DNA from: Bacilli bacterium
GTDB taxonomy: Bacteria; Bacillota_I; Bacilli_A; RF39; UBA660
DNA length: 64,000 bases
Reading direction: 5' to 3'
NCBI GenBank assembly: GCA_017460745.1
Contig: JAFUAL010000029.1
Coordinates: 3,063-67,062, forward strand
The notes below the pieces were generated by a model. That model saw only the letters and a program-made list of their open reading frames with translations. It did not search any database and was not told where the DNA came from. This document shows, one piece after another, positions 11,597-56,547 of this stretch. Both the position numbers and the translations under genes were made by a program. The stretch's first letter is position 1. Each line of letters starts with the position of its first letter.

Positions 11597-13315
11597 ATGT
11601 CTTTTATTAAGGAAAAAGAGTTAATACTTCAAGATATATTAAAAGAATTAAATTATGATACAGAAGTTAGAGTATTACCAAGTTCTAAAAAGGAACTTGG
11701 AGATTTTCAAATAAATATAGCAATGAATTTAGCAAAAAAATATCATAAAAATCCGATGGTTATTGCTTCTGAAATTACTAATAAAATGCAAGATTATTTT
11801 GCAAATGTTAATATTGCTGCTCCTGGTTTTATCAATTTTAGTTTTAAGGAAGAGGAACTATTAGATTTTTTTAACAATGGAATAAATGATTTTGAAAAAT
11901 TATACGATAAACATCTTGAAAAAACAATTTTTTTAGATTATGGTGGTGCCAATGCAGCTAAAGCACTTCATGTTGGACATATGAGATCAGCAAACATTGG
12001 TGAAGCTTTAAGAAGACTTTGTAAAAGACTTGGTTATAAAACAATAAGTGATGTACATTTAGGTGATTTGGGTCGTCAAGCCGGAATGCTTATCTCTGAA
12101 ATAAAAAAGAGAGAACCCAACCTTGCTTTTTTTGATGAAAATTATAAAGGAGAATACCCTAAAGTACATTATACCGCAAGCGACCTAGGAGAAATGTATG
12201 TTAAAGCTAATATTGCAGCCAGTGAGTCTGACGAAAGAATGGAAGAAATTAGAAATATTACGGCTTTAATTGATAAGGGTGACGAGAAATTACTTGCTTT
12301 ATGGAAACAACTTGTAGAGATATCTAGTGTGGAAATAAAAAAAGTCTATGATGAATTAAATTGCCATTTTGATTTATGGGAAGGGGAACTTAATAGCTTT
12401 AATGATATACCTAGTATGTTAGAATATATGAAACCATTTCTATACGAATCAAATGGTGCAATGGTTATGGATGTAAAACTTGAAACAGATACAAAAGAAA
12501 TGCCACCTTTAATTGTAATAAAAAAAGATGGAGCAACTATATATGCAACTCGTGATTTAGCTAGTATCTATTCTCGTGTAGAGAGATTTAATCCTGATGA
12601 AATATGGTATGTTGTTGATTCACGTCAATCACTTTATTTTGAACAAGTATTTAGGGCTAGTCAGATTGCAGGATTAGTTAAAGATAATAAACTTTTACAT
12701 TTAGGATTTGGTACAATTAATGGACGTGATGGTAAACCATATAAAACAAGAGATGGTGGAGTGATGTATTTATCAAATCTCATTGATATAATAAAATCGG
12801 AAATAGAACCTAAAATAAAAAATGATATTAAAGATGAAAAAAGAGATGAAATTAAAGAAAAACTTACTATTGCAACTCTTAAATACTCTGATTTAATGTC
12901 AAATAGAACAACTGATTATATATTCGATGAAGTTAAATTTTCATCATTCGATGGTAAGACAGGACCATATATTTTATATACAGATGTTCGTTTAAAATCA
13001 ATTCTAAAAAAAGCAGGAGATAAAGACTTTAAACTAGAAGTAATTAATAACGATGACTTAAAAAATATTTTACTTAAAGTGTTAGAACTTCCTAGTACTC
13101 TAAATCACTCATTTAATGATAAAAGTTTAAACTATATTACAGATTATTTATTTGATATTTCAAGTTTATTTAATAAATTTTATAATACTTATCATATTTT
13201 AACTGAAAGTGATTCTAAAATAAAGAATACATATCTTGCCACTTGTAAATTAATTTTAAACATAATTGAAAACTTGTTAAATATTTTAGCAATTGATACA
13301 GTTGATAGAATGTAA
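11597..13315 (+). CDS. argS: arginine--tRNA ligase
   Basis: Class I HIGH-type motif ALHVGHMRS, anticodon-binding C-terminal domain, terminal ..DRM. AAAGGAG SD favours the ATG at 11597. A TTGTTA-17-TATAAT promoter lies upstream. Confidence 0.9.
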   Translation: MSFIKEKELILQDILKELNYDTEVRVLPSSKKELGDFQINIAMNLAKKYHKNPMVIASEITNKMQDYFANVNIAAPGFINFSFKEEELLDFFNNGINDFEKLYDKHLEKTIFLDYGGANAAKALHVGHMRSANIGEALRRLCKRLGYKTISDVHLGDLGRQAGMLISEIKKREPNLAFFDENYKGEYPKVHYTASDLGEMYVKANIAASESDERMEEIRNITALIDKGDEKLLALWKQLVEISSVEIKKVYDELNCHFDLWEGELNSFNDIPSMLEYMKPFLYESNGAMVMDVKLETDTKEMPPLIVIKKDGATIYATRDLASIYSRVERFNPDEIWYVVDSRQSLYFEQVFRASQIAGLVKDNKLLHLGFGTINGRDGKPYKTRDGGVMYLSNLIDIIKSEIEPKIKNDIKDEKRDEIKEKLTIATLKYSDLMSNRTTDYIFDEVKFSSFDGKTGPYILYTDVRLKSILKKAGDKDFKLEVINNDDLKNILLKVLELPSTLNHSFNDKSLNYITDYLFDISSLFNKFYNTYHILTESDSKIKNTYLATCKLILNIIENLLNILAIDTVDRM

Positions 13316-43558: not shown

Positions 43559-44344
43559 TTATTTTTTTTCTAAATAATCAATTAAGTAATAAAGAATAGT
43601 TGAAATTATTCCAAGTATAAAGACACTTGTAATTACTAAATTGATATTAAATACTTCACTTCCATACATGATTAAATAACCAAGCCCTTGCTTTGATACC
43701 AAAAGTTCTCCCATTATAACACCAATTAAATTCATACTAACATTTATTTTTAGAGTACTAATAATATTTTTAATATTAGATGGAATGATTACTTTTTTGT
43801 AAATATCAAATTTAGTTGCTTTCATGCTCAAAAGAAGTGTAATATAATTTGGATTTGTATTAATGAAAAATGTATACAAATTTATAATGGTGATAAATAA
43901 AGATATCATAAGGCTCATGAATATTATAGAATTTATACTTGCACCTATCCATATAATTATTAAAGGTCCAAGTGCAACTTTAGGAAGAGAATTAAGAATG
44001 GTTAAATATGGATCAAATACTTTTCTTAGAAATTCATTTTGAAACAGAATAGTTGAAATTAAGAATCCTAAACCAAAAGAAATAAGAGTACTTATTATAA
44101 TTTCATAAATAGTTGTTAAAACGTGATGAAAGAAGTTATTAGTCGTCACAAGTGAGAAAATTGTTTTTAATATGTTTTTAGGTGATGAGAAAAGGAATAT
44201 ATTAATAATTCCTAAGCTACTTAATAATTCCCAAGTAAAAAGTAAAGAAATAATAATAAATATTTGAGTTAAATAAACTTTTGTTTTGTCTTTTTTTAAT
44301 TTTTTTAGATATAGGATATGTTCAGTGCTATATATTTTCATCAA
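43559..44344 (-). CDS. ABC transporter permease (NitT/TauT-type binding-protein-dependent family)
   Basis: Six TM segments with an EAA-like loop (..LNSLPKVALGPLIIIW..). Overlaps the 3' end of the split ATPase gene by 17 nt. Confidence 0.8.
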   Translation of the reverse strand: MMKIYSTEHILYLKKLKKDKTKVYLTQIFIIISLLFTWELLSSLGIINIFLFSSPKNILKTIFSLVTTNNFFHHVLTTIYEIIISTLISFGLGFLISTILFQNEFLRKVFDPYLTILNSLPKVALGPLIIIWIGASINSIIFMSLMISLFITIINLYTFFINTNPNYITLLLSMKATKFDIYKKVIIPSNIKNIISTLKINVSMNLIGVIMGELLVSKQGLGYLIMYGSEVFNINLVITSVFILGIISTILYYLIDYLEKK

Positions 44345-44666
44345 TATCCCTCCATATCAAGTCATAGTAATAATTAAATTTTTCGTCTTTTCTATTTTCA
44401 GTTGGAATACTTGGTTTATTAAGTTTTATATCATATATCTTTTTGATAGTTGCTGGACGACGTGAAAGAACAATTACACGCGATGATATCGAAATTGATT
44501 CTGCAATGTCATGCGTAATTAATATAGCTGTTTTTCCTTCTTCTTTGATGATATTATATAAATCATCAGATAATTTTAATCTAGTTTGATAGTCAAGTGC
44601 ACTATAAGGTTCATCAAGAAGTAAGATATCAGGATTCATTGCAAGTGTTCTAATTAATGCTACTCT
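44328..44666 (-). pseudogene. 3' fragment of a split ABC-transporter ATPase gene
   Basis: Reads RVALIRTLAMNPDILLLDEPYSALD.. (the rest of the signature/Walker B/D-loop/H-loop ..ILITHD). It has no start of its own upstream of the junction at 44666/44667. Confidence 0.85.
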
Positions 44667-44745
44667 ATGAATATAATGAAGACACTTTTCTATTTTTCTT
44701 TAATTTTTAATGTTTTTTATTTCGTTTAACTTTATTTTAACAGAG

Positions 44746-45600
44746 TTATTTATTTTCTAGTTTTTTATTATCATCTTTATATTGATAATCTAGTGCATTT
44801 TCTTTTGAAATAGCAGATGTTTTTGTTTCTTCTTCATATACATCTCTTGCGCTTTTAGCGACTCTTCCACCACGAGCAGCAACTTTCATATTTTCACTTA
44901 ATCCTTGTGGACGCTCATTTTTAGCAATATCACGAGCAGCAATTTCGCCAATGTTAGTTAAAGCAATTTCAATATCGGTCATATTATCTCTTAATGATTC
45001 TTTTCTTATGCCTTTATATGCTTTATATTCACTTGCTTTCATTCCAGACCAACCTTTGTATATCTCGTTAGTAAGCATTGCATATTCAACAGGTTTTTTA
45101 ATGCCACCATCTTTCCATATATCAGTTAGTTTAAATCTATCAACAATACCATTTAATCTTTTCTTAATCCATTCATCACTATAACCTTTATTACGATAAT
45201 AATTTACTGCACGATTAATTGCTATTTCAGGATCAAAGACTTCATCAATTCTCTCGCTACCTAAACCTGCTAACCAAACTTTAAAAGGTTCAGCTTTGGG
45301 GGAAGGAACAGATTCAATTAATCTTAATATGCCTTTAGTATCTAAAACATCTGTTAAATAATTTTTTCCATCTTTTTGAGATTTTAATTTCAGTTGTCCC
45401 AATTTTGAGGACAACTGACTTCCTTCGTTGTCTAGTTTTGTTTTTAAAGCATTCCAATATTTTCTAGGTCTAGGACTTTCTGTTAATACACTAATAACAT
45501 CAACTACACTAAAGAAATAATCTTCTTTTTCACTATCCCAAACACTTCTGATTTCTTTACCTTCAAAGAGATTAGAAATTGTTTGTAGTTTATTATTCAT
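44746..45600 (-). CDS. BRO-N domain / DinD-like DNA-damage-inducible protein homolog
   Basis: N-terminal ..FEGKEIRSVWDSEKEDYFFSVVDVISVLTES.. (Bro-N-like) and a C-terminal DinD-like region. Confidence 0.6.
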   Translation of the reverse strand: MNNKLQTISNLFEGKEIRSVWDSEKEDYFFSVVDVISVLTESPRPRKYWNALKTKLDNEGSQLSSKLGQLKLKSQKDGKNYLTDVLDTKGILRLIESVPSPKAEPFKVWLAGLGSERIDEVFDPEIAINRAVNYYRNKGYSDEWIKKRLNGIVDRFKLTDIWKDGGIKKPVEYAMLTNEIYKGWSGMKASEYKAYKGIRKESLRDNMTDIEIALTNIGEIAARDIAKNERPQGLSENMKVAARGGRVAKSARDVYEEETKTSAISKENALDYQYKDDNKKLENK

Positions 45601-45647
45601 TCATTATCACATCCTTCCTTTTTAGATTTGGTTATGTAAGTAGGGGA

Positions 45648-47261
45648 TTATTCAAAATTCCATTTAATTTGAATATCCCTACTATTTGTTTCTTCATTTA
45701 ACTTTCCTATATAGATTTTATCAATAAATTCATCTACAATAACTCTGTTTAGTTCTTTAAGTTCTTGGTATTTACTAAATATCTTTTTATTATTCTTTGA
45801 AGATTCTTCTTTCATTTTGTAGTAAGCAATTTCATTATTAATTGATTTAATTTGATTACTATATTTTTCTTCATTTTGGTTGTAATCAGTTATTAAATCT
45901 TTAAATTGTTCGGCTGTGATAACACCATTAACTTTATCTTCATATAAACTTTTTAAATAATTTCTAGTTTTGGCAACTTCTTTTTCAACATCAGCTCGTT
46001 GTTTTTCTAATGATTTAATCTTACTACTAAATCTAGTTTTTTTCTTTTTAGAATCTAAATCATTTAATTCTTCTTCATCATAGAATTTTTTGATTTTCTT
46101 GTTAATTGCCTCCAAGACTAAATCAGCTAGTAAATCATACCTAATTGACGACTTATTAATGCAATCATCATATCCATCACGATTATTAGAACATACTAGA
46201 TATTCGTGTTTAGATGAGTTCTTTTTTCTCATATAATGTTTGCATTCAAGACAAAATACTTTACCAGAGAATATATGAACAACACCTGTTGCTTTCATAG
46301 GTTTAGTTCTTTCTTTCATAGCCACCTGAACTTTATTAAAAGTTTCTTCATCAATAATTGCTTCGTGAGTATTTTCAATTTTAATCCACTCACTTTTATC
46401 TTTGTGTTTAATTTTATGGTTTTTATAACTAACAGTAGTTCTTTTACCTTGAATTAAATGTCCTAAATATAATTCGTTCGTTAAAATCGTTTTAATGGCA
46501 TTTGTAGACCATTTTATATCTTCTCTAGGTCTATTACTAATTACATTTAATTTAATCCCTTTTCGGTATTTATATAGGGAAGGACAGGGTATATTTTTAC
46601 TATTTAGATATTTTGCTATACCTGTGAATCCTAATCCTGTTAGATATAAGTCAAATATATCTTTAACAATTTCGGCAGCTACTGGATCTACTACTAATTT
46701 ATTATTGTCTTCAGTAGATACTTCATAACCAAATGAGGCAAAAGGAGAAATAAATTCTCCTTGCTTCATTTTAGCATTGAAAGCACTCCTAATATTGTTA
46801 GATACATCTTCCAAATACCACTCATTAACAAGTCCATTTATTTGTCTTGATTTTTTATTACCTTTATTTGCAGTATCAGCATTATCAGCAAGACTTATAA
46901 ATCTTACTCCCCATTCAATAAACTTATTATGAAGATATTTTTCTATGATTTCCATATCTCTTGAAAATCTTGATTGACTTTTACATAGAACAACATCTAT
47001 TTTACCATTTTCACAATCTCTAATAAGTCTTTCAAATTCAGGTCTATAAGTTCCTGCACCTGATAAATCTTCATCACAATATTCATCTACTAATATAAAT
47101 TCAGGTCTTTTTTCAATTTCAGCCATAAGAAGATGTCTTTGATTTTTGATTGATTCACTATTATCTTCTTTATTTGCTTTGTCTCTATCTTCATCAGATA
47201 ATCTTTCGTAAATACCAACTCTTAATACTTTCTTACTCTCAACACTCTCCGTTTCATTCAT
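45648..47261 (-). CDS. large serine recombinase (integrase of the element)
   Basis: GGAGG SD before the ATG at 47261. Resolvase catalytic domain (RVGIYERLSDED..SIKNQ), recombinase domain, zinc-ribbon Cys cluster (CLECKH..CSNN..C) and a coiled-coil C-terminus. It is the terminal gene next to the element junction. Confidence 0.9.
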   Translation of the reverse strand: MNETESVESKKVLRVGIYERLSDEDRDKANKEDNSESIKNQRHLLMAEIEKRPEFILVDEYCDEDLSGAGTYRPEFERLIRDCENGKIDVVLCKSQSRFSRDMEIIEKYLHNKFIEWGVRFISLADNADTANKGNKKSRQINGLVNEWYLEDVSNNIRSAFNAKMKQGEFISPFASFGYEVSTEDNNKLVVDPVAAEIVKDIFDLYLTGLGFTGIAKYLNSKNIPCPSLYKYRKGIKLNVISNRPREDIKWSTNAIKTILTNELYLGHLIQGKRTTVSYKNHKIKHKDKSEWIKIENTHEAIIDEETFNKVQVAMKERTKPMKATGVVHIFSGKVFCLECKHYMRKKNSSKHEYLVCSNNRDGYDDCINKSSIRYDLLADLVLEAINKKIKKFYDEEELNDLDSKKKKTRFSSKIKSLEKQRADVEKEVAKTRNYLKSLYEDKVNGVITAEQFKDLITDYNQNEEKYSNQIKSINNEIAYYKMKEESSKNNKKIFSKYQELKELNRVIVDEFIDKIYIGKLNEETNSRDIQIKWNFE

Positions 47262-47332
47262 AACTATTACCTCCAATACAAAGGCAATAATTAAAGTTAA
47301 AGTTAAACTTATAACCAATACTATTATAACAT

Positions 47333-47458
47333 TTATTTTGCAGTATTAACATTAAACTCCATCAATTCTATAATATTATATAGTTTTTTATTAATTATTT
47401 CTTTTAATTTAGTATCGGTTAATTTTTCATCTACAATATCAATAATATTGTATTGCAT
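47333..47458 (-). CDS. 41-aa hypothetical protein upstream of the recombinase gene
   Basis: AAAGGGG SD, then ATG at 47458. MQYNIIDIVDEKLTDTKLKEIINKKLYNIIELMEFNVNTAK. A further 18-codon ORF with a GGAGG SD lies at 47480-47536. Confidence 0.35.
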   Translation of the reverse strand: MQYNIIDIVDEKLTDTKLKEIINKKLYNIIELMEFNVNTAK

Positions 47459-47702
47459 TTAATTTACCCCTTTCGCATATTAAGTTTGAGAGATAAAAAG
47501 ACGCTTGTAATCATTAATTTGTTTATTTTTTCTCATATTATCAATCCTCCAATCACTACTTAATTTAAAATAATATTTTTTGGTACATTTTATTATAAAA
47601 AGGTTATTATAATTTTAAAGGTTAGTTTCTATCATTTATATAAATTTAATTTGTTTTTGGTTACAAAGTCTTTTTGTTAAAATATTAAGAGTTAGATACA
47701 AC

Positions 47703-49163
47703 TTACATACTTATTTCAAAATCATCTGATTTATCTTTTTCAGGTTTTTCATACTTACGATTAACCCCATTTGCATAGTATTCCATATCATCATAATTAA
47801 TTTCATCATCTTTAGAAAAGTGAATACCTATCTTATGACCTAGAGCCCTGCAAATCTTATCACAAAAGTTAAACATTTTTTCTTTAAAGTTATTAAATGT
47901 TTCTTGTATTTCATTAACTTTAGTTTCTAACTTTTCAATAATAGAATTTTTTTCTTTTATTACTTGTTTTTGTTTAGATATTGTTAGTTCTTGTTCGTAA
48001 ATTTTAGTATCTCTTTCCTTAATAGCACGACCATCTTTTAATTTTGAATTTTCAGTTTGAAGATTATCTATCTTATCAGTTAGTTCTTCAATCAAAACAT
48101 TCTTTTGTTTTATTACACTTTTACTATTTGAATTTTGTTTTTGAATTTGTTTAGAATAATCAATCAAATTATTAATATCTTCATCTTTATATCCTACAAC
48201 TTTTCTTTTTACAGGATTTAAGATTTCTTTCTCATCTATTTCAGAAAGTTCTTTTGCAGTTTGAAGTTCTATCTCATTTAATTTTTTATTTTTTTCAAAT
48301 TCAATTTTCATTTCATTAATTTGTTCGTTTAAATCTTCAATTTCTTTTTCAGCTTTAGTTTTATGATGTTTATTATCTCCAATATTCCCACGAAATAACT
48401 TGTATCCTTTTTCAGTAATATATTTGTTATAGTCATCTTGAATTTTTGCATAAGATGTTTTACCACCTAATGCTTTCCAAAACTGATCACAATTCAAAAA
48501 TTTACCTTTTTCAGTTTTAAAAATGTTTTTACCATTTTCATCTTTCTTTTGCACAGGATACATTTTTTTATTTCCTTTTTTATCTATGCCTTCACGATAG
48601 ATTATATTTCCGTTTGAATCAGTTTCAAAAATTTTTCTTTTAACTTCATTTACGATTGGCATAAAATAAAAGTGCATGTGTGGAGTATCTTCATCATAAT
48701 GAACTTCTGCATAAATTATATTATCTTTTCCAACAAGTTTTTCTAAAAAGTTATAACTATCTTTAAAAAAATCTTTGACTTTTTCAGGAATATCATCATC
48801 ACTTTTTATATCAGGAACGAGAATAGGTTTACTTTTATCTTTTCCTACTTGATGAGTTCTATCACTTTCTTTAAATTTCATTCCCAAACTTTGAAAAAAT
48901 TCTTTTCCACTTGTAACGATAGCACCATTTAACAAATTTGTATTCTTGCCATCATTATAGTATATTTTATTTTCTTTTAATTTAGAATAAACTTGTTCTT
49001 GAAGTGTAGATGTTGATAAAGGAACAAAACTATAATTAAATTGTGTTCTATCTTTATCATAATTTCCTGTTCCTTTTCTATCTTTTAGTTCTACACCAAG
49101 TCCACCTAAATCACTTGCTTTATATTTATTTTCAAATCTCAATACTTGATTTCCATCATACAT
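47703..49163 (-). CDS. MobV (Pre/Mob) family relaxase
   Basis: Signature HYDEDTPHMHFYFMPIV (HxDE..PHxH). Long coiled-coil C-terminal half. AAAGGAGGA SD. Confidence 0.85.
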   Translation of the reverse strand: MYDGNQVLRFENKYKASDLGGLGVELKDRKGTGNYDKDRTQFNYSFVPLSTSTLQEQVYSKLKENKIYYNDGKNTNLLNGAIVTSGKEFFQSLGMKFKESDRTHQVGKDKSKPILVPDIKSDDDIPEKVKDFFKDSYNFLEKLVGKDNIIYAEVHYDEDTPHMHFYFMPIVNEVKRKIFETDSNGNIIYREGIDKKGNKKMYPVQKKDENGKNIFKTEKGKFLNCDQFWKALGGKTSYAKIQDDYNKYITEKGYKLFRGNIGDNKHHKTKAEKEIEDLNEQINEMKIEFEKNKKLNEIELQTAKELSEIDEKEILNPVKRKVVGYKDEDINNLIDYSKQIQKQNSNSKSVIKQKNVLIEELTDKIDNLQTENSKLKDGRAIKERDTKIYEQELTISKQKQVIKEKNSIIEKLETKVNEIQETFNNFKEKMFNFCDKICRALGHKIGIHFSKDDEINYDDMEYYANGVNRKYEKPEKDKSDDFEISM

Positions 49164-49496
49164 TTTATTCCTCCTTTGCTGTGCTTCTTTAGTATAAAGG
49201 TCATTTATTGACCTATCTCACTAGGGCATAGCCCACGTGAGATTAGGGAGTTCCCTAATAACCCCTTGCTTGTTTTTCGTAAATGCCTAAACTTGTCGTA
49301 AAGGCATAAACTTCAAACAAGATTAAATAATAACTATCCACTGGATACTTATTATTTAATAAAAATTACTAAAGCATAACTTTAGTAATTGTAAAAATAT
49401 TCACTATCGCCACTTTCATTTTTCTTGCGAAAAACAAAACGTGCCTCGTTCATTTTTACTAACTTTTTAGAAAAAAGTTATCAAAAAATTTAATGA
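49164..49496 (-). other. putative oriT / structured region upstream of the relaxase gene
   Basis: Locally GC-richer and packed with inverted repeats: TCTCAC..GTGAGA around GGGCATAGCCC, ATTAGGGAgtTCCCTAAT, ATGCCT..AGGCAT, TTAAATAATAA..TTATTATTTAA, ATTACTAAAG..CTTTAGTAAT. Confidence 0.45.
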
Positions 49497-50456
49497 TTAT
49501 TCATCATAATCATTAATCGGTTCTTCATATTTTGCATTATAAATTCTTTCAGCGCCTGTTCTTTTTGATTCAATATGAAGACCTTCTTTTTCTAAATTAT
49601 CTAAATTATTTCTTAATAATTTTCCAAATACTGATGGAACAATTTGTAAATTTAATTTGCTCGTAATATCAGATACTGTGAATGAAAATTCTTTTTGTTT
49701 GATAGCATAATTTAGAAAAATTAATAGGTTAGGATTTAAGTCATTACTATCAGTTTCTGACTTTTCAAAGATTAAATTTTCATTTCTTTTTAGAACAAAA
49801 TCTATGCTTTCATAATCTCTACTTTCATAAGAAAATAAGATTTTATTTTTAAGATTTTGATCTAATTTTAGAGTAATAATTCCATCAACAGAGCCATCTA
49901 TTGCAGTTGATCCGAGTGATTTATTATTCTTATTTAAATGATGAATTAGTAAAATGGTAAAATTATATTTCTTACACAATTCTCTAAATTTAGGAATAAC
50001 ATATTGTCCCATATCTTGATAATTATTTAAGTCATAACCATTATTCATATCAATTCCACTAAACATATCTATAATTACAAATCTTCCATTAAGGTCATTT
50101 GCAAACTCTTGAAACTCTAATTGTAAGTCCATTAAATTTAATTTTCTTTCATTAATTTCCTGTTCTTTTAATCTAAAATTATCATCAGTAAATTCTAAAT
50201 TCATTTTATCAATTCTATCTAAAATTTGTGAAAAATTCATTTCTGTGCTAATATATAAGACAGGAGATGGACTTGTTCTAAATCCTAAAAAGTTTGTTCC
50301 TGTTGCTACTCTATTAGCAAGTTGTAGTGCGAGTAACGACTTGCCAACTTTTGGTCTAGCAACAAGACAATATAATCCATTAGATTTCATTAGATTATCA
50401 ACTATGAAATCTTTTTTTATAGAATTTTTTCTCATTTCACTTATTGTTTTCATCAA
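49497..50456 (-). CDS. RepA-like AAA_25 / RecA-fold ATPase (replication/helicase-type protein of mobile elements)
   Basis: Walker A ..LVARPKVGKSLLALQLA.., Walker B-like VIIDMF and ..ILLIHHLNK.. motifs. Confidence 0.65.
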   Translation of the reverse strand: MMKTISEMRKNSIKKDFIVDNLMKSNGLYCLVARPKVGKSLLALQLANRVATGTNFLGFRTSPSPVLYISTEMNFSQILDRIDKMNLEFTDDNFRLKEQEINERKLNLMDLQLEFQEFANDLNGRFVIIDMFSGIDMNNGYDLNNYQDMGQYVIPKFRELCKKYNFTILLIHHLNKNNKSLGSTAIDGSVDGIITLKLDQNLKNKILFSYESRDYESIDFVLKRNENLIFEKSETDSNDLNPNLLIFLNYAIKQKEFSFTVSDITSKLNLQIVPSVFGKLLRNNLDNLEKEGLHIESKRTGAERIYNAKYEEPINDYDE

Positions 50457-50685
50457 GATTCTCCTTTCTAGCTGTCAAACTTTTTAAATAATCTACATCA
50501 ATTTTTAAATATTCAACAACAACATTCATAGGTAAATCTCTTGTATGAATTTCATAGTTTAATTCTTCTTTAATCTTATTTCTAATCTTTAAAACTGAAC
50601 TTCTACTTAATCCCGTTAGTTTCATTAAATCATTAATATCACACCAAGTTTTAGATATTAGATTTAGTGTTTCTTCAGCATTCAT
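50437..50685 (-). CDS. small HTH DNA-binding protein (excisionase/regulator candidate)
   Basis: 82 aa. ..INDLMKLTGLSRSSVLKIRNKI.. helix-turn-helix. First gene of the leftward backbone operon. Confidence 0.5.
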   Translation of the reverse strand: MNAEETLNLISKTWCDINDLMKLTGLSRSSVLKIRNKIKEELNYEIHTRDLPMNVVVEYLKIDVDYLKSLTARKENLDENNK

Positions 50686-50898
50686 TTAATCTACCTCTCT
50701 TTCTTTTGTTTTTGATGGTTTTAGTGTTCCCAACAACTCCCTTTAAGGATGTATATATAGTTATTAGCCATATATGTAACGAGAATTTTAGATAATTCAC
50801 AACTCCGTGCCAATAGGATACTTGCCTTGCATTTGTTTAACGAGTCGGCATATATCGGCGATTTCCAACTCTATTTAATTTTCAAATAACTATATTTA

Positions 50899-51010
50899 GG
50901 TTGCAAAATAGATTAAATCGCAACCATTGAGTTGAGTATAGCATATAGAAAAATACTTGTCAACTATAAAGTTGCAAAAATATGCAATTTTAATCAAAAA
51001 AGTTGCAAAA
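50899..51010. promoter_or_regulatory. divergent control region with repeated GTTGC/GCAAC half-sites
   Basis: GTTGCAAAA occurs at 50900-50908, 50971-50979 and 51002-51010. Inverted partners: GGTTGC..GCAACC (15-nt spacing), TTGTCAAC..GTTGCAAA, GCAAC..GTTGA. The last repeat overlaps TTGCAA-17-TATATT, the predicted promoter of the Xre gene. Confidence 0.5.
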
Positions 51011-51056
51011 GTATTAAAAATGTGTTATATTTATATTGCGAAAGGAGTTTATTCGT

Positions 51057-51569
51057 ATGATTAATAATGAAGAAACTGTTGGGCAAATGATTGCTAGAGC
51101 AAGAGAAGAAAAAGGATTATCTAAAAGAGAATTATCAAGACTTGCTAAAATAAGTGATACAGAACTTGCTCGTATTGAATCAGGAGAAAGAGAAATACCC
51201 AACCCAAAAACTTTAAGAAAAATAAGTCAGCATATTGGAATTAATTATAATGATTTAATGTATGCTGCTGGACTTGGTTTTCAAGTCACACCTTTAAATC
51301 CATTTTTAATTAACTATTATTCAGGACTAAAAGGAGATCAAATTGTTGATGCTATACTTAATACTTCATCAGTAATTAAGAACTGGGAAGAAATGATAGA
51401 ACAATTTAAAAAGGATTTAGAAACAAAAGAATATAATGAGGCACAAATAGAACAAATAGAACAAACTATTGAAGATACTGAATATCAAATAAGAACTGCT
51501 AAAGAAATAGTTAATGTTTTAAATAGTGCTAGAAGAAAGGAGAATATAGAAAATGCAAAGAACAACTAA
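51057..51569 (+). CDS. Xre-family HTH repressor with coiled-coil C-terminal domain
   Basis: AAAGGAG SD before the ATG at 51057. ..VGQMIARAREEKGLSKRELSRLAKISDTELARIESGER.. HTH_3-type motif. Confidence 0.8.
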   Translation: MINNEETVGQMIARAREEKGLSKRELSRLAKISDTELARIESGEREIPNPKTLRKISQHIGINYNDLMYAAGLGFQVTPLNPFLINYYSGLKGDQIVDAILNTSSVIKNWEEMIEQFKKDLETKEYNEAQIEQIEQTIEDTEYQIRTAKEIVNVLNSARRKENIENAKNN

Positions 51570-52002
51570 AAAGAAATTTGATATTATTAAAATTATAATT
51601 AATATAATATTACTTGTTTTAATGATTTTAAGCATAACCAAAAAAGATAATATTTATTATGCTTGGTATTGGATTATGGTAACAATTATGCTAATATCTG
51701 AAGTCTATTATTTGTTAAAATGGAACAAAGTTGGAGAATGGAATGTTGATAAAAAAGATTCTAAAGCAATTAGATATTCCTTTGATGGTTTAACTACAGG
51801 CACTTTATTGATGATAGGTTTTATATATTTAGGAGTTTTAGGTTATGAATTTTTAGATAAAAGTATTAAGACAAATACTTATGTAATAGTTGGAGTTTAT
51901 GCTTTATTTACATTATCAATAATATTTGATTATTTAGCACTTTATAGTGCAAATAAAGATACTAAAGAACTAGCTGAAAAGACTTTTAAATATAAAAAAT
52001 AA
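51553..52002 (+). CDS. 4-TM membrane protein
   Basis: 149-aa ORF overlapping the Xre gene by 17 nt. Confidence 0.55.
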   Translation: MQRTTKKKFDIIKIIINIILLVLMILSITKKDNIYYAWYWIMVTIMLISEVYYLLKWNKVGEWNVDKKDSKAIRYSFDGLTTGTLLMIGFIYLGVLGYEFLDKSIKTNTYVIVGVYALFTLSIIFDYLALYSANKDTKELAEKTFKYKK

Positions 52003-52063
52003 TGACAGCAATGACAGGAAAAATCAGGTGATACCCACCTAAAATTTGCCGTCATGCCGTCAT
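52002..52063. repeat. iteron-like compound palindrome
   Basis: ATGACAG x2 (52002-52008 and 52011-52017) face GCCGTCAT x2 in perfect tandem (52048-52055 and 52056-52063). They surround an inner AGGTG/CACCT hairpin. No T-run follows. Confidence 0.5.
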
Positions 52064-52136
52064 CTGACATAATAAAAAGTAATATAATTTTATGATTTAT
52101 TAGATAAATAGTAATTTGTTAAGGAGTTGAAGTAAA

Positions 52137-52613
52137 ATGTCTAATGAAAATAAAAAAGATTTTAATACTATGATGAAAAACAATAAAGATATGCCTAAAA
52201 CACAAATTGTTAAAGATGAAATGACTATAAAAAAATATGGTGGAACTAAAATGTTTTTTGCACCACCACTTTATTATGATGAACTAATGAAAAAAGTTCC
52301 AAAAGGAAAACTTGTAACAGTTAGTCAAATGAGAGATTATTTAGCAAAGAAAAATAATGCTGATTTTACTGATCCTATGACAGCAGGTATATTTGTTAAT
52401 ATTGTTGCTTGGGCTAGTTATCAAAGAGATAAAGATATTACACCATATTGGAGAACATTAAAATCAGATGGTGAATTAAATGTTAAGTATCCAGAAGCAA
52501 TAGAGTTACAAAAGAGATTGCTTGAAGAAGAAGGACACACTATTATTACTAAAGGAACAAAAAATATAAAATATTATGTTAAAGATTTTGAAAATAGTTT
52601 AATAGAATTATAA
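52137..52613 (+). CDS. MGMT/ATL-like DNA-binding-domain protein (no active-site PCHR motif seen)
   Basis: ..VPKGKLVTVSQMRDYLA..DPMTAGIFVNIVAW..ITPYWRTLKSDGEL.. resembles the winged-helix DNA-binding domain of methylguanine methyltransferase-like proteins. Confidence 0.4.
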   Translation: MSNENKKDFNTMMKNNKDMPKTQIVKDEMTIKKYGGTKMFFAPPLYYDELMKKVPKGKLVTVSQMRDYLAKKNNADFTDPMTAGIFVNIVAWASYQRDKDITPYWRTLKSDGELNVKYPEAIELQKRLLEEEGHTIITKGTKNIKYYVKDFENSLIEL

Positions 52614-52660
52614 TTCAAATTACAATTTATAGATTAGTTCACAAGATTAATATATAGAGA

Positions 52661-52681
52661 ACGGATGAAAATCCGTTTTTG
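52661..52681 (+). terminator. intrinsic terminator
   Basis: ACGGAT-gaaa-ATCCGT followed by TTTTT. Confidence 0.75.
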
Positions 52682-52825
52682 TGTTTATGTGTAGATTAAC
52701 AGAATTTAGTGGTAAAATATTATTAGAAATGTGTATTGCTACGATAAGTAGCATAAATGTAATGTAATGTTGCTGTTATTAAATGAATCATCCTAGTAAA
52801 ATTAGAGTTAGAAAGAAGGGATATT

Positions 52826-53401
52826 ATGACATTAGGTCAAAAATTAAAAGAGATAAGAAAAAGATTTGGTTTATCTCAAGAAAGTCTTGCTGAAATAATG
52901 AATGTTTCAAGACAAGCAATAACTAAATGGGAATCAGATGGAGGAATACCTGATATAACTAACTTGCAAGAATTATCGAAGGTATTTGGTGTATCAATTG
53001 ATTATTTTGTTAATCAAAATTTGGAATTACCGATACTTACTATGAGAAAAGAAATAAATAAAGAAGATTATTCTAGTAAGCTAAAGTCTTATGATGAAGT
53101 TATAGGTCAATATTTTTCAGAATCATGGAAAGTATATAGTCTAACTAAGTCAGAGAAAGAGAATAAACTAGAAGTAGCACTAGATATATTAACAGGTGGA
53201 CTAACCTATGGAACGATAAAAGATTTAAGTGATTTGTCTGTATATGCTTTAGCTGTAAAAGATAATATCAAATTGCTTGTGAATATTAAGAATTGGATTC
53301 TAACTATAAAAGAATTACCAAGTGATATAGATGAAAATAAATTTACAGTAGATAACAAAGTGTTCAGAAAATGTGCTTTAATTAAATTAAAGAGTAAATA
53401 A
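52826..53401 (+). CDS. Xre-family HTH protein with an uncharacterised C-terminal domain
   Basis: MTLGQKLKEIRKRFGLSQESLAEIMNVSRQAITKWESDGGIPD HTH_3 motif. Confidence 0.75.
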   Translation: MTLGQKLKEIRKRFGLSQESLAEIMNVSRQAITKWESDGGIPDITNLQELSKVFGVSIDYFVNQNLELPILTMRKEINKEDYSSKLKSYDEVIGQYFSESWKVYSLTKSEKENKLEVALDILTGGLTYGTIKDLSDLSVYALAVKDNIKLLVNIKNWILTIKELPSDIDENKFTVDNKVFRKCALIKLKSK

Positions 53402-53413
53402 TTAAACGATAAA

Positions 53414-53447
53414 AGTTACCCCACATTTTGTTAGGGTACTTTTTTTA
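53414..53447 (+). terminator. intrinsic terminator
   Basis: TACCC / GGGTA stem with a 12-nt loop followed by T7. Confidence 0.6.
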
Positions 53448-53485
53448 TTATTTGTATTATAATTACTGCTGAAAGGAGCTAGATT

Positions 53486-54085
53486 ATGGATCAAGAGCGT
53501 ATTGGTAAATTTATTCAAAAACTTCGTAAAGAAAAAAACTTAACTCAAAAAGAATTAGCCGATAAATTGTTAGTAACTGAAAATGCAATAGGTAATTGGG
53601 AAAATGGTAGAAGGATGCCAGACTATTCAATATTAAAGGAGCTATGCGAAATATTAGGCACAAATGTAAATGAGTTATTAAGTGGTGAAAGAATTCAAAA
53701 CTATAAAGAAAAGGCAGAAGAAAATTTAATAAAATCAAGAGAGCAAGAAGAGGCATATAACAAAAGACTTCTAGCTTTAGATAATATTATTAAGATTATT
53801 ACATCTATTTCTTATTTAGCACTTTTATATGCAAATATTATATCTGAAAATAATATTAATAAGTATTTGTTTATGATTCTTTCAATTGTCATTATATTTA
53901 TAGGTCTTACAGCAGTTATACGAATTGAAACAGATGCTGGATATTATGAGTGTAGTAGTTGTAAACATAGATACATACCAAGTTTTAAAGCAGTTTATTT
54001 GTCCTTAAATAAGGGAAAAACAAGATATTTAAAATGCCCAAAGTGTAATAATAAAAGTTGGAATAAGAAAGTATTATATAAATAA
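53486..54085 (+). CDS. membrane-tethered Xre-family regulator with C-terminal CxxC..CxxC zinc ribbon (paralog 1)
   Basis: HTH_3 N-domain, coiled coil, two TM helices, then YYECSSCKHRY..LKCPKCNNKSW. Confidence 0.75.
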   Translation: MDQERIGKFIQKLRKEKNLTQKELADKLLVTENAIGNWENGRRMPDYSILKELCEILGTNVNELLSGERIQNYKEKAEENLIKSREQEEAYNKRLLALDNIIKIITSISYLALLYANIISENNINKYLFMILSIVIIFIGLTAVIRIETDAGYYECSSCKHRYIPSFKAVYLSLNKGKTRYLKCPKCNNKSWNKKVLYK

Positions 54086-54119
54086 TATAAAATTAAATTT
54101 TTAAGGGTGGTGAAATATT

Positions 54120-54203
54120 ATGAATTCAGAAAAGAAAGAAAAAATAGGATGGATTATTGTATTAATAGGTATTGTAGTGGCAGTAGTTAGTACAATCTGG
54201 TAA
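54120..54203 (+). CDS. 27-aa single-TM mini-protein
   Basis: GGGTGGTGA SD-like sequence before the ATG at 54120. MNSEKKEKIGWIIVLIGIVVAVVSTIW. Confidence 0.35.
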   Translation: MNSEKKEKIGWIIVLIGIVVAVVSTIW

Positions 54204-54485
54204 GAATTTAATCCATTAATTGAAAATGTATCCAATATAGTGAAATATATTAAACGAAATAGCAAGTCTTGATTAAGAGATTTGTTTTTTTAGTATAATT
54301 ATAATAAAAAAATAGTAATTTGTTGAATATCAAGATGCTCGTAAAATAGTAATATTCAGAACAACTCAATGAAAAAATATGCTATTTTTATGGTAAAATA
54401 TAGGGATAAAGTAAAACTCAACTTCTGGTTCGTGTTAATACTTAATGATTTAGAGTATATTTGAGTCATGAAAGGAGAAAACTAT

Positions 54486-55094
54486 ATGGATCAAATTAAA
54501 ATAGGAAAATTTATTCAAGAAAAAAGAAAAGAACAAAAACTTACTCAAAGTGATTTAGCAGAAAGATTAAATATAACAGATAGAGCTATATCAAAATGGG
54601 AAAATGGTAATTGCTTACCAGATGCTGGAACGATGCCAGAGCTTTGCAAGATATTAAATGTTTCTATCAATGATCTATTTAGTGGTGAAATAGTAGATAT
54701 GAAAGATAACGAAAAGAAATTAGAAGAAAATTTACTTGAGATAGCAAAACTAAAAGAAGAAAAGGATAGGCAATTGTTAGCACTTGAATATGTAATTGGA
54801 TTTACTGCAAGTATAACATTTCTAATATTAATATTTGTAGCATCATATGTAGAAATGGAAACTTGGTTAAGAATATTACTTATAGTTGCAGGAAGCATAA
54901 TATTTGCATTTGGTGTAGGTAATGCTATAAAGATTGAACAAACTGCAGGATACTATGAATGTTCAGAGTGTAATCATAAATATGTTCCAACATATCAAAG
55001 TGTATTTTGGGCACAACATATGGGAAGAACAAGAAAAATGAAATGCCCTAAATGTGGCAAAAAATCTTGGCATAAGAAAGTTTTGACAAAATAA
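54486..55094 (+). CDS. membrane-tethered Xre-family regulator with C-terminal zinc ribbon (paralog 2)
   Basis: AAAGGAG SD before the ATG at 54486. Same domain order as 53486-54085. Identical blocks: GKFIQ, LTQ, WENG, AGYYECS.C.H.Y.P, KCPKC..KSW.KKVL.K. Confidence 0.75.
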   Translation: MDQIKIGKFIQEKRKEQKLTQSDLAERLNITDRAISKWENGNCLPDAGTMPELCKILNVSINDLFSGEIVDMKDNEKKLEENLLEIAKLKEEKDRQLLALEYVIGFTASITFLILIFVASYVEMETWLRILLIVAGSIIFAFGVGNAIKIEQTAGYYECSECNHKYVPTYQSVFWAQHMGRTRKMKCPKCGKKSWHKKVLTK

Positions 55095-55110
55095 AGGAGG
55101 AAAAAATAAT

Positions 55111-55329
55111 ATGAAAGAATGTATAAGATGTAATTCAGTAATGGTTGAGAATTTACAAATTGGAAGTAATGGAACAAAAATTGTTAAGGATAATATATTA
55201 AAAAATCCAATTGGAGAAATAAAATGTGCTGTATGTCCAGAATGTGGATATGCTGAAACATATGTTGAAAATTTAGAAATAATAAAAGAGTTAGTCAGTA
55301 AAGAAAATAAGTTAATTAAAAGAAAATAA
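55111..55329 (+). CDS. 72-aa zinc-ribbon protein
   Basis: CIRC..(41 aa)..CAVCPEC. AAGGAGG SD. Starts 16 nt after paralog 2. Confidence 0.55.
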   Translation: MKECIRCNSVMVENLQIGSNGTKIVKDNILKNPIGEIKCAVCPECGYAETYVENLEIIKELVSKENKLIKRK

Positions 55330-55372
55330 AAGAGGTCGTAATATTTTGGTATTCCGAACTACATAAAAAAAT

Positions 55373-55409
55373 AACCCTAATAGTCAATTTAGACTACTAG
55401 GGTTTTCGT
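55373..55409. terminator. bidirectional intrinsic terminator
   Basis: AACCCTAATAGTC / GACTACTAGGGTT stem with an A-run before and a T-rich run after. It lies between convergent genes. Confidence 0.65.
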
Positions 55410-55805
55410 TTACTTATTCATTAATGAATAACAATAATCATATACATATAAGTGATTATTAATCTCTCTATTTATGACTTTGTCTTTAAAATCAGTTTCA
55501 TAAATATTAAATAACATTTCAATAGTAAATTTTTTCTTTTCAATATCAGTAAGTTCTAAATACTTGGCTGAAAGAAATAATAAATGCTTATATTTAGCAA
55601 AATTAACAATAGTTTTGCTATAACTTGGATCTAATTTATTTAATATTTCTTTTAATAGTATAATTATATCTTTTACATTAAAATTAATATCAAAGTTCTT
55701 ATTTTCTAGTAAGTATATAGCAAGTCTTATTTTATCAATATTCTTTAAATCATCAAACATACTAATTAATTCAATTACTTTCTTTGTATGACTATCTAAT
55801 AACAT
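55410..55805 (-). CDS. hypothetical protein (last gene inside the element)
   Basis: 131-aa ORF with a TGAGGT SD. No motif recognised. Confidence 0.5.
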   Translation of the reverse strand: MLLDSHTKKVIELISMFDDLKNIDKIRLAIYLLENKNFDINFNVKDIIILLKEILNKLDPSYSKTIVNFAKYKHLLFLSAKYLELTDIEKKKFTIEMLFNIYETDFKDKVINREINNHLYVYDYCYSLMNK

Positions 55806-55946
55806 AATTTACCTCAATCTTTCTTTTATTTTAGTTATAAGTTTACTACTTAATTATTGCCTAGTGTCTATACCGTATCCGACCACAGGTATGAATACAG
55901 TGAAGACATTAATTTATATTTGTGTCTTCATAGCATACAGACAACC

Positions 55947-56356
55947 CTTTGACGCATACCACCTGATAAATTATCAGGATATTTATAAATAAAATCTTTT
56001 AAACCATATTTTTCAAGAAGTTTTTTAACATTGTTGATGTTTTGATCAGTTAATTCATTATTAAGTTCTAAGCCAATTAAACAATTATCGAGAATTGTTC
56101 TCCATGGGAATAAGGAATCAGTTTGGAGCATATAGCCAATTTTAATATTATTATTCATTATGATATTTCCATTACTTTTATTAGTTAGTCCAGCCATAAT
56201 TGAAAGAAGAGTAGATTTACCACAACCACTTGGTCCAACAATTGATATGATTTCATGTTCTTTAACATCAAAGCTTATATTATCAATTGCAAGTGTTTCA
56301 TCGTATTTATCATGATATATTTTAGATAAATTTTTAATTTGTAAGATATTTTTCAT
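55947..56356 (-). pseudogene. 5' fragment of the split ABC-transporter ATPase gene
   Basis: GGAGG SD before the ATG at 56356. Walker A GPSGCGKST, Q-loop, signature LSGGMRQR. The frame then runs into element DNA (VVCML, stop at 55928). Confidence 0.85.
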
Positions 56357-56547
56357 AAAATATTCCTCCAACTAATGTAGTTTATGAAAAATAAAAAAAT
56401 GTTGTAAAGACAAATAACTGCATAGGATTAAGTTTTTATCTAAATAAAGAAGTAATGTATTTTAAATTTGTATCTTTTTATTATTAACATTAATTGATTC
56501 ACAATATAATATTGTAGATATTTTATAAATAATAATTAGGAGGTTTT

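Follow-up and report, generated by a model that had tools for sequence, protein, structure and literature searches.

What kind of DNA splits an ABC ATPase gene in the genome of an uncultured Bacilli bacterium, and how did it come to lie there? The question is raised by a 64,000-nucleotide stretch (GenBank assembly GCA_017460745.1, contig JAFUAL010000029.1, positions 3,063 to 67,062 of the forward strand; GTDB lineage RF39, UBA660), which we refer to as the window and whose first letter is position 1 in what follows. The G+C content is about 25% across this low-GC window, and the source is a 1.47-Mb metagenome-assembled genome (MAG) in 65 contigs. The inserted segment, here named E1, is very probably an integrative mobilizable element (IME) whose family occurs in many uncultured gut Bacilli; a model of its integration, excision and transfer is proposed below. 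A preliminary description, made from the letters of the window, had arrived at a helper-dependent IME with a serine recombinase, a MobV-type relaxase and a RepA-like ATPase, a reading that fits all of the evidence. It is comparison between genomes that shows the insertion site, the attachment arms, the core, the intact gene in relatives and the use of this site by the family.

E1 comprises positions 44664-55943 plus one copy of a two-base core, i.e., 11,282 bp in total, and is bounded by the two halves of one ABC ATPase gene, as the preliminary description had it. The limits given there, 44667-55946, hold to within 3 bp and give way to the exact ones used here. The features at the two ends are as follows, attP being the attachment site of the element.

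44328-44663, minus strand: C-terminal half of the ABC ATPase, beginning with the Val codon and reading VALIRTLAMNPDILLLDEP...; the open reading frame (ORF) is 44328-44639, with homology reaching back to 44663
44662-44685, minus strand: left junction, with the core at 44662-63 followed by the P arm of attP at 44664-44685 (GTGTCTTCATTATATTCATAGA in gene orientation); the P arm recurs at C-side junctions
55922-55945, minus strand: right junction, with the P' arm of attP at 55922-55943 (TGTCTGTATGCTATGAAGACAC in gene orientation) followed by the core at 55944-45
55944-56371, minus strand: N-terminal half of the ABC ATPase, from Walker A to LSGGMRQRV

The core reads AC on the plus strand, at 44662-63 and again at 55944-45, and GT in the orientation of the gene. 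The N-terminal half (ORF 55928-56371, minus strand; Pfam ABC_tran 1e-22) runs on for four foreign codons past ...LSGGMRQRV to a stop at 55928, and the C-terminal half aligns with residues 141-253 of intact orthologues from 12 relatives. The split point is the Val codon between LSGGMRQR and ALIRT, and the gene encodes the ATPase of a two-gene NitT/TauT-type transporter. An uninterrupted copy, proposed earlier as something to be sought in related genomes, is present in 12 genomes of the same genus or family as the host. Across the break point these read ATG AGA CAA AGA GTT GCT TTA ATT AGA ACA, which gives the empty host site (attB) as ATGAGACAAAGA GT TGCTTTAATTAGAACA. In at least four further species of the genus the gene is broken at this very codon; in one of them the insert is a minimal 3.7-kb element with only an Xre gene, the recombinase, a RhuM/Fic-like gene and a BRO remnant.

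Where within this site did the exchange take place? Relatives of the E1 recombinase were collected by a scan of one genome per species (n=190), and all family counts use the best 80 loci, with recombinases 72-93% identical to that of E1. All 80 come from MAGs of uncultured gut Bacilli or 'Tenericutes', the hosts being humans, rabbits, ruminants and chickens. Imperfect inverted repeats, previously noted at the ends of E1, are located at 44667-44685 and 55922-55940. Their sequences recur at 42 N-side and 58-59 C-side junctions, and in 69 of the 80 loci at least one junction lies in the orthologue of the E1 target gene. Because of this recurrence the repeats cannot be due to chance, and they are, as judged from the alignments, the two arms of a conserved attP. 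The consensus is ATGAGACAAAGA-GT-TGGATGAATATAGTATAGACAC for the N-side junctions and GTGTCTTCACTACATTCAAAGA-GT-TGCTTTAATTAGAACA for the C-side junctions, and the reconstructed attP, GTGTCTTCACTACATTCAAAGA-GT-TGGATGAATATAGTATAGACAC, is an imperfect palindrome of ~46 bp centred on GT (~100 junctions, 80 loci).

At the N-side junctions, the bases 5' of GT vary in the manner of Gln (CAA/CAG) and Arg (AGA/AGG/CGA) codons, and the base 3' of GT is nearly always T. At the C-side junctions, the bases 5' of GT ignore codons (CATAGA, CGTAGA, CAAGCA), and the base 3' of GT takes all four Val wobble values. Codon-type wobble is expected of host DNA, and codon-blind variation or a fixed base of element DNA; the change from one pattern to the other falls exactly at GT, which places the exchange within it. 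This confines the predicted crossover to GT, which forms positions 1 and 2 of the Val codon. A CT dinucleotide, also considered as the crossover, was rejected in favour of GT (AC on the plus strand) by the same variation pattern. Arms with imperfect dyad symmetry around a non-palindromic 2-bp crossover, as found here, are the mark of an attachment site for a large serine recombinase (LSR). The preliminary description had also pointed to a GAAGACA/TGTCTTC palindrome just inside the right end; it is present at 55896-55931, adjoining the P' arm. Comparable GACAC...GTGTC repeats occur in L057, L096 and L099 and are absent from most relatives, so that a repeat of this type is no constant part of the site.

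The element can lie in either direction: the recombinase gene is co-oriented with the target gene in 59 loci and inverted in 10, and in these 10 the entire interior is turned round with respect to the core. One inverted element, in locus L061, has the N-side junction CAACGT-AC-TCTTTGAAT, with AC where all others have GT; its C-side junction lies beyond the contig.

Does the family move? The host genome contains a second member, E2, on contig C11 (G000:C11:14206-28745, or L027:207-14746; ~14.5 kb), with a recombinase 82% identical to that of E1 and the same arms at its junctions. Its target is a different ABC ATPase gene, split at the homologous Val codon (between ...SFSHGMKQK and ALISALAHEP...) and followed by a gene for a 548-aa membrane protein. 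Seven genomes of the same genus have this gene in one piece, and only the E2 host genome has a split copy. The E2 recombinase is 99% identical in amino acid sequence, and a 7.6-kb backbone 93-95% identical in DNA sequence, to the L055 and L060 elements of other genomes. The L055 element occupies the primary site, and the L060 contig end shows only a short fragment of the target gene. Since E2 and L055 are nearly identical, they are essentially the same element at two different sites, and this comparison provides direct evidence that the family moves. The E2 site before insertion differs from the consensus attB at 6 of 30 positions (manual count), and a fuzzy search of the whole genome returned only the arm sets of E1 and E2, and nothing else that resembles attB. 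Most simply, E1 would have occupied the primary site first, leaving the best look-alike site to E2. In L053 and L048 the P arm stands beside non-ABC DNA. Two further loci, L044 and L029, were considered as insertions into paralogous ABC genes on account of low ATPase identity; an orthologous permease gene downstream identifies them as primary-site insertions.

A second insertion hot spot was observed in the same ABC ATPase gene at about residue 197, in the LITHD or H-loop region (L088, L086, L091 and L099). The 5.7-kb insert there in L088 (4423-10157) encodes a different, short serine recombinase (364 aa), a sortase-like protein and a 646-aa surface protein, and in L091 both hot spots are filled, which leaves the ATPase gene in three pieces.

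What, then, does E1 carry for its integration and transfer? Its ORFs were scanned against Pfam, NCBIfam, PHROGs (10 ORFs) and PADLOC, and these scans agree with the gene list that had been drawn up beforehand (BRO-N, recombinase, MobV relaxase, AAA_25 ATPase, small helix-turn-helix (HTH) protein and Xre regulator), the two micro-ORFs of that list being the 41-codon and 18-codon ORFs below. The leftward operon, in the order of its positions, consists of the following features.

44746-45600, minus strand: BRO-N protein (Pfam Bro-N 4e-9; phrog_15286 6e-102; PADLOC PDC-S13 3.5e-111)
45648-47261, minus strand: large serine recombinase, 537 aa from ATG, with a possible upstream TTG start at 47318
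47333-47458, minus strand: 41-codon gene upstream of the recombinase gene; tblastn match in 64 of the 80 loci, relaxase-free loci included
47480-47536, minus strand: candidate 18-codon ORF, MRKNKQINDYKRLFISQT
47703-49163, minus strand: MobV-type relaxase, 486 aa (Pfam Mob_Pre 64.4 bits, cut-off 25.5)
49164-49496, minus strand: candidate origin of transfer (oriT), a 333-bp structured spacer with conserved nested hairpins between the ATPase and relaxase genes
49497-50456, minus strand: RepA-like/DnaB-C-like P-loop ATPase (Pfam AAA_25 2.7e-25; PHROG matches to primase/helicase ATPase domains)
50437-50685, minus strand: small HTH protein, first gene of the operon, with a weak DUF5886 match and conserved in 19 family loci

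The recombinase has the Pfam domains Resolvase, Recombinase, Zn_ribbon_recom and DUF4368. The catalytic motifs YxRxS (YERLS) and SRFSRD are both there and do not vary within the family, and every invariant column common to five relatives is retained. A truncated or inactive recombinase would have spoken against the preliminary description; the ORF is of full length and keeps all family-invariant residues, and the enzyme is predicted to be intact. It is, by its domains, of the TnpX/TndX-like DUF4368 type, yet apparently site-specific, a departure from its textbook relatives. The 41-codon gene has kept its length (35 of the 40 unique versions displayed have 41 codons, the rest 40-47), and we infer that its product is a candidate recombination accessory or directionality factor. 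What lies between the recombinase gene and the P arm varies, a RhuM/Fic-DOC-like gene taking the place of BRO-N in other members; the E1 BRO-N protein is a full-length match to the candidate defence family PDC-S13 (PADLOC, 369 bits).

The relaxase is identified by sequence motifs and by its predicted fold. MOBV1 relaxases have motif I HxxR, motif II NY(D/E)L and motif III HxDExxPHUH (PMC5090054). In E1, motif III is HYDEDTPHMH (residues 155-164), in agreement with this pattern; the motif II region, FNYSF, shares the Asn and Tyr and differs in the next residues; and motif I is GVELKDR, not HxxR. The family pattern for motif I is GVE(L/M)xxRKG, where MobM has K-H22-N-E-R. In an AlphaFold2 model of the N-terminal domain (pLDDT, the predicted local distance difference test score, 83; predicted TM-score 0.80), the sole PDB match is the relaxase domain of MobM (E 1e-10, TM-score 0.73-0.77 normalised to the target MobM), and the model places a beta-rich insertion of ~80 residues that MobM does not have. 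The motif I stretch itself is of low confidence (residues 21-30, mean pLDDT 56).

Next to the relaxase gene, the spacer that the preliminary description took for a structured oriT is strongly conserved in the family alignment, with the invariant block GGGCTATGCCCTAGTGAGATAGGTCAATAA. Of the 68 base pairs that RNAalifold predicts, 12 show compensatory changes, and the proximal 137 nt folded as single-stranded DNA give z = -4.0, so that the conserved hairpins at 49164-49496 are consistent with the putative oriT.

No type IV secretion system (T4SS) or pore, capsid or tail family was found among the element ORFs scanned with Pfam, and no T4SS or structural-protein family among the 10 ORFs scanned with PHROGs, as had been described before. 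E1 has its own recombinase and att sites, a relaxase with a candidate oriT, and no T4SS genes among the scanned ORFs, a combination expected of an IME. A helper would have to supply the rest. The host genome has four strong matches to TraG/VirD4-type coupling proteins and several VirB4-like matches, and an ICE-like region (resembling an integrative and conjugative element) of ~33 kb on contig C39 (G000:C39:101987-134540) encodes a VirB4-like ATPase, an M23 peptidase, a MobL relaxase and a VirD4 coupling protein, as well as two serine recombinases (genes at 101987 and 132822). The T4SS of this region could serve E1 as helper. A second T4SS cluster is located at C6:11393-21967, where the coupling-protein gene looks split.

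For E1 we propose that the LSR joined the ~46-bp attP to attB within the ABC ATPase gene, cutting at GT, and that this insertion would have inactivated the ATPase of the NitT/TauT-type transporter. The recombinase, possibly with the 41-aa protein, would excise the element as a circle and restore the gene. The MobM-fold relaxase would nick the candidate oriT, and the single strand would exit via the T4SS of a co-resident conjugative element, e.g., the C39 cluster. The AAA_25 ATPase may help to process or replicate the excised DNA, and the back-to-back Xre/HTH promoters described below may set the switch.

Several findings weigh against the proposal that E1 is a transferable IME. The relaxase scores 96.9 bits with the NCBIfam MobV model, just under the cut-off of 100, and its motif I Glu aligns with the catalytic His22 of MobM. 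Mobilisation is no constant feature of the family, since this relaxase is encoded in only 8 of the 31 complete elements (3.1-13.2 kb in size), all eight being at least 9.5 kb. The pairing with a helper is inferred solely from co-residence in one genome. At 6 of 24 positions the P' arm of E1 departs from those of its closest relatives (18 of 24 match in a base-by-base junction comparison with L038). Finally, no excised circle or empty site was found in the assembled contigs of four metagenomes of one study that hold the strain, contigs being a form of data that drops rare forms.

The replaced histidine deserves closer attention. In MobM the nucleophile is reported to be a histidine, His22 (PMC5863519). 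Among distant relatives, taken from a library of 1.8 billion proteins in 50%-identity clusters (150 best matches, E <= 5e-12), the 15 sampled representatives, Mob_Pre proteins of 31-40% identity, have a conserved Glu at the His position, in the pattern IGxExxR, and some also have Tyr, Asp or Glu two residues after it. Canonical HNKR/HNER motifs are found in the unrelated Mob proteins of L071, L108 and an Enterococcus faecalis plasmid. That the Glu is conserved argues for a functional variant, not a dead enzyme. It is conceivable, if rather doubtful, that the E1 relaxase belongs to a large uncharacterised Mob_Pre/MobV branch with a nicking chemistry unlike that of MobM; such a branch would use another nucleophile, e.g., the motif II tyrosine, or would nick without a covalent histidine adduct. 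The Glu-for-His relaxase branch is the one thread here with real potential for novelty.

Excision was sought by aligning the contigs of eight sequencing runs to the locus and by a search for further runs that hold the flank. The contigs (Logan) run through both E1 junctions without a break and at the depth of the flanks; the joints reported in the run contigs each have one side of only 20-26 bases, and none is at the att site. A search of metagenome and viral contigs for a free attP circle with the pattern ATTCAWAGAGTTGNWTGAAT gave 109 matches and no such circle. The only match with both arms is L199, at the joint of two tandem family elements, which points to integration into an already occupied junction. 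In L199 (OLHG01000331.1) the joint, P arm-GT-P' arm, lies at ~12972-13017, and the order is recombinase and BRO, joint, BRO2 and further on a second recombinase, 61% identical.

This lack of excision products in contig-level data suits an E1 that integrated as described and is now stranded, unable to excise or transfer, a fixed island that keeps the transporter gene broken. The divergence of the P' arm points the same way, as do the loss of the relaxase module in many family members and the 85-86% nucleotide identity over the backbone to the nearest relatives in the databases, at which no very recent transfer of E1 is visible. A stranded E1 is nevertheless unlikely: all backbone ORFs are intact and of full length, the recombinase has every family-invariant residue, the oriT block is conserved, and the sister element E2 made a lineage-specific insertion in the same genome.

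The position of the break raises a further possibility, namely that E1 is a gene-intervening switch like skin in sigK, in which excision timed by sporulation or a nutrient signal rebuilds the ATPase gene in a subset of cells. The insertion lies in a frame-restoring position within the coding sequence, the halves of the gene are intact, minimal 3-4 kb versions with a recombinase and no relaxase exist in many species, and the window also encodes a BclA-like collagen protein. Such a switch is nonetheless highly improbable, given that the target is no known sporulation gene, that the closest relatives by ATPase identity have the gene uninterrupted, that E1 carries a relaxase and a candidate oriT, that family members occupy other sites too, and that nothing ties excision to any signal.

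Least probable of all is a phage satellite or defective prophage that would use the Xre switch, BRO-N and the primase/helicase-like ATPase for induction and replication and spread in hijacked capsids: PHROG matches exist for the BRO-N protein, the Xre regulators and the AAA_25 ATPase, but no capsid, terminase, portal, tail or packaging gene and no cos- or pac-like feature was found in E1, the pattern search of viral contigs gave four matches and no family element (two examined for attP arms looked like chance), and a MobM-fold relaxase beside a conserved structured region is the signature of conjugative mobilisation.

The transferable IME is thus our preferred reading of E1, and the remaining features, a divergent control region, a rightward arm and a gene next to the P' arm, complete its description.

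50686-51035, no strand: divergent control region, the 350 bp that separate the HTH and Xre genes, with back-to-back promoter-like sites
51036-52002, plus strand: Xre-family regulator (177 aa) and a protein of 149 aa with four transmembrane segments (4-TM), with which the rightward arm begins; conserved in 21 (Xre) and 19 (4-TM) loci
52137-55329, plus strand: cargo specific to E1, five genes
55410-55805, minus strand: 131-aa end gene adjoining the P' arm, present in 16 loci at 62-90% identity

In the control region, a leftward site with extended -10 (TTGACA-17-TATACT, 50963-50935) and a rightward site (TTGCAA-17-TATATT, 51003-51031) are promoter-like by consensus match only. The cargo encodes a 158-aa MGMT-fold DNA-binding protein, a 191-aa Xre protein, a 72-aa zinc-ribbon protein, and two membrane-tethered Xre/zinc-ribbon proteins of 199 and 208 aa. 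For the first of these (52137-52613) nothing is above threshold: the MGMT DNA-binding domain scores 23.4 bits, below the cut-off of 27, and PYWRT replaces the alkyltransferase motif PCHRV, so that the product would be an alkyltransferase-like protein without the catalytic Cys. The cargo is absent from the other 80 family loci, save for 35-43% matches to the two membrane-tethered Xre proteins in three loci. A rightward arm that starts with an Xre regulator and carries cargo is what the preliminary description had outlined; the terminator that it assigned to each cargo gene is only weakly borne out, as six terminator-like sites were found where 2.1 were expected, and just one of them immediately follows a plus-strand cargo gene. 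The 131-aa end gene has no family match in Pfam, NCBIfam or PHROGs.

The composition of the family is equally variable. Among the 80 loci, the 41-codon gene is found in 64, the BRO-N gene in 37, the relaxase in 36, the AAA_25 ATPase in 25, the Xre and 4-TM pair in ~20, the 131-aa end gene in 16 and the RhuM/Fic-like gene in 12. The closest relatives of E1 share only a 7.4-kb backbone (85-86% nucleotide identity) and the 131-aa end gene. E2 has a RhuM/Fic-DOC-like gene in the BRO-N slot, and its cargo includes a 1571-aa protein with weak matches to Cas3/DinG-type helicases. Judged by these gene contents, the family consists of a recombinase core to which a mobilisation module is frequently, though not invariably, attached.

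How does E1 compare with known elements? IMEs of Firmicutes with a serine recombinase integrate within genes, e.g., the streptococcal IMEs in rumA (PMC5704250). Like E1, these have a single LSR, a disrupted and dispensable coding sequence, very short junction repeats, their own relaxase and oriT, no T4SS, and variable cargo. The E1 family differs in its target, an ABC ATPase gene just after the signature motif, in its hosts, uncultured gut Bacilli with small genomes, and in its DUF4368 recombinase. A full-text literature search found no description of an attB in the signature region of an ABC ATPase gene, absence from such a search being weak evidence.

The studied prototype is Tn4451/Tn4453 of Clostridium perfringens and Clostridioides difficile, with the recombinase TnpX, the MobV relaxase TnpZ and the oriT RS_A; TnpX integrates and excises without a directionality factor (PMC5704250). 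E1 shares with it the combination of an LSR and a MobV relaxase with an upstream structured oriT, a backbone NTPase gene, and a target that resembles the circular joint. Tn4451 inserts with low specificity (PMC5704250), whereas the E1 family is site-specific, 69 of 80 loci having a junction in one orthologous gene at the same codon. The gene order of the E1 family is circularly permuted relative to the att site when compared with that of Tn4451. The core dinucleotide is GA in Tn4451. By recombinase identity the two are not close: the best matches of the E1 enzyme among LSRs on plasmids, TndX-annotated ones included, are 31-37% identical, Tn4451 being set apart here by way of the review and these TndX-annotated matches. 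On the E. faecalis plasmid LR962508.1, an AAA_25 ATPase, a MobV relaxase and an LSR follow in the same order on one strand, adjoining tet(O); this module is 22-32% identical to that of E1, has its own relaxase with an HNER motif I and an extra ParB-like gene, and is plasmid-borne.

With respect to specificity, DUF4368 occurs in 63% of a multi-targeting LSR clade versus 0.73% of site-specific LSRs (Durrant et al. 2022, PMC10083194). The E1 family resembles that clade in its DUF4368 architecture and in the occasional use of look-alike secondary sites, whereas it is predominantly site-specific; as far as its junctions tell, it is a site-specific exception among DUF4368 LSRs.

E1 is an ordinary IME of the established serine recombinase/MobV kind, one that will not surprise a specialist, and the E1 family leaves the current understanding of IMEs unchanged. 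What is gained is a clean attP/attB pair and a natural data set for an LSR, with ~100 junctions, both orientations, and a primary and a look-alike site in one genome. For recombinase engineering, a highly site-specific DUF4368 enzyme stands in useful contrast to the multi-targeting enzymes related to it. The family also affords an initial view of the mobilome of its hosts, uncultured gut Bacilli with genomes of 1.2-1.5 Mb, for which almost no mobile elements have been described so far. The E1 family indicates that these small genomes exchange IMEs with defence-like and regulatory cargo, at the cost of transporter genes.

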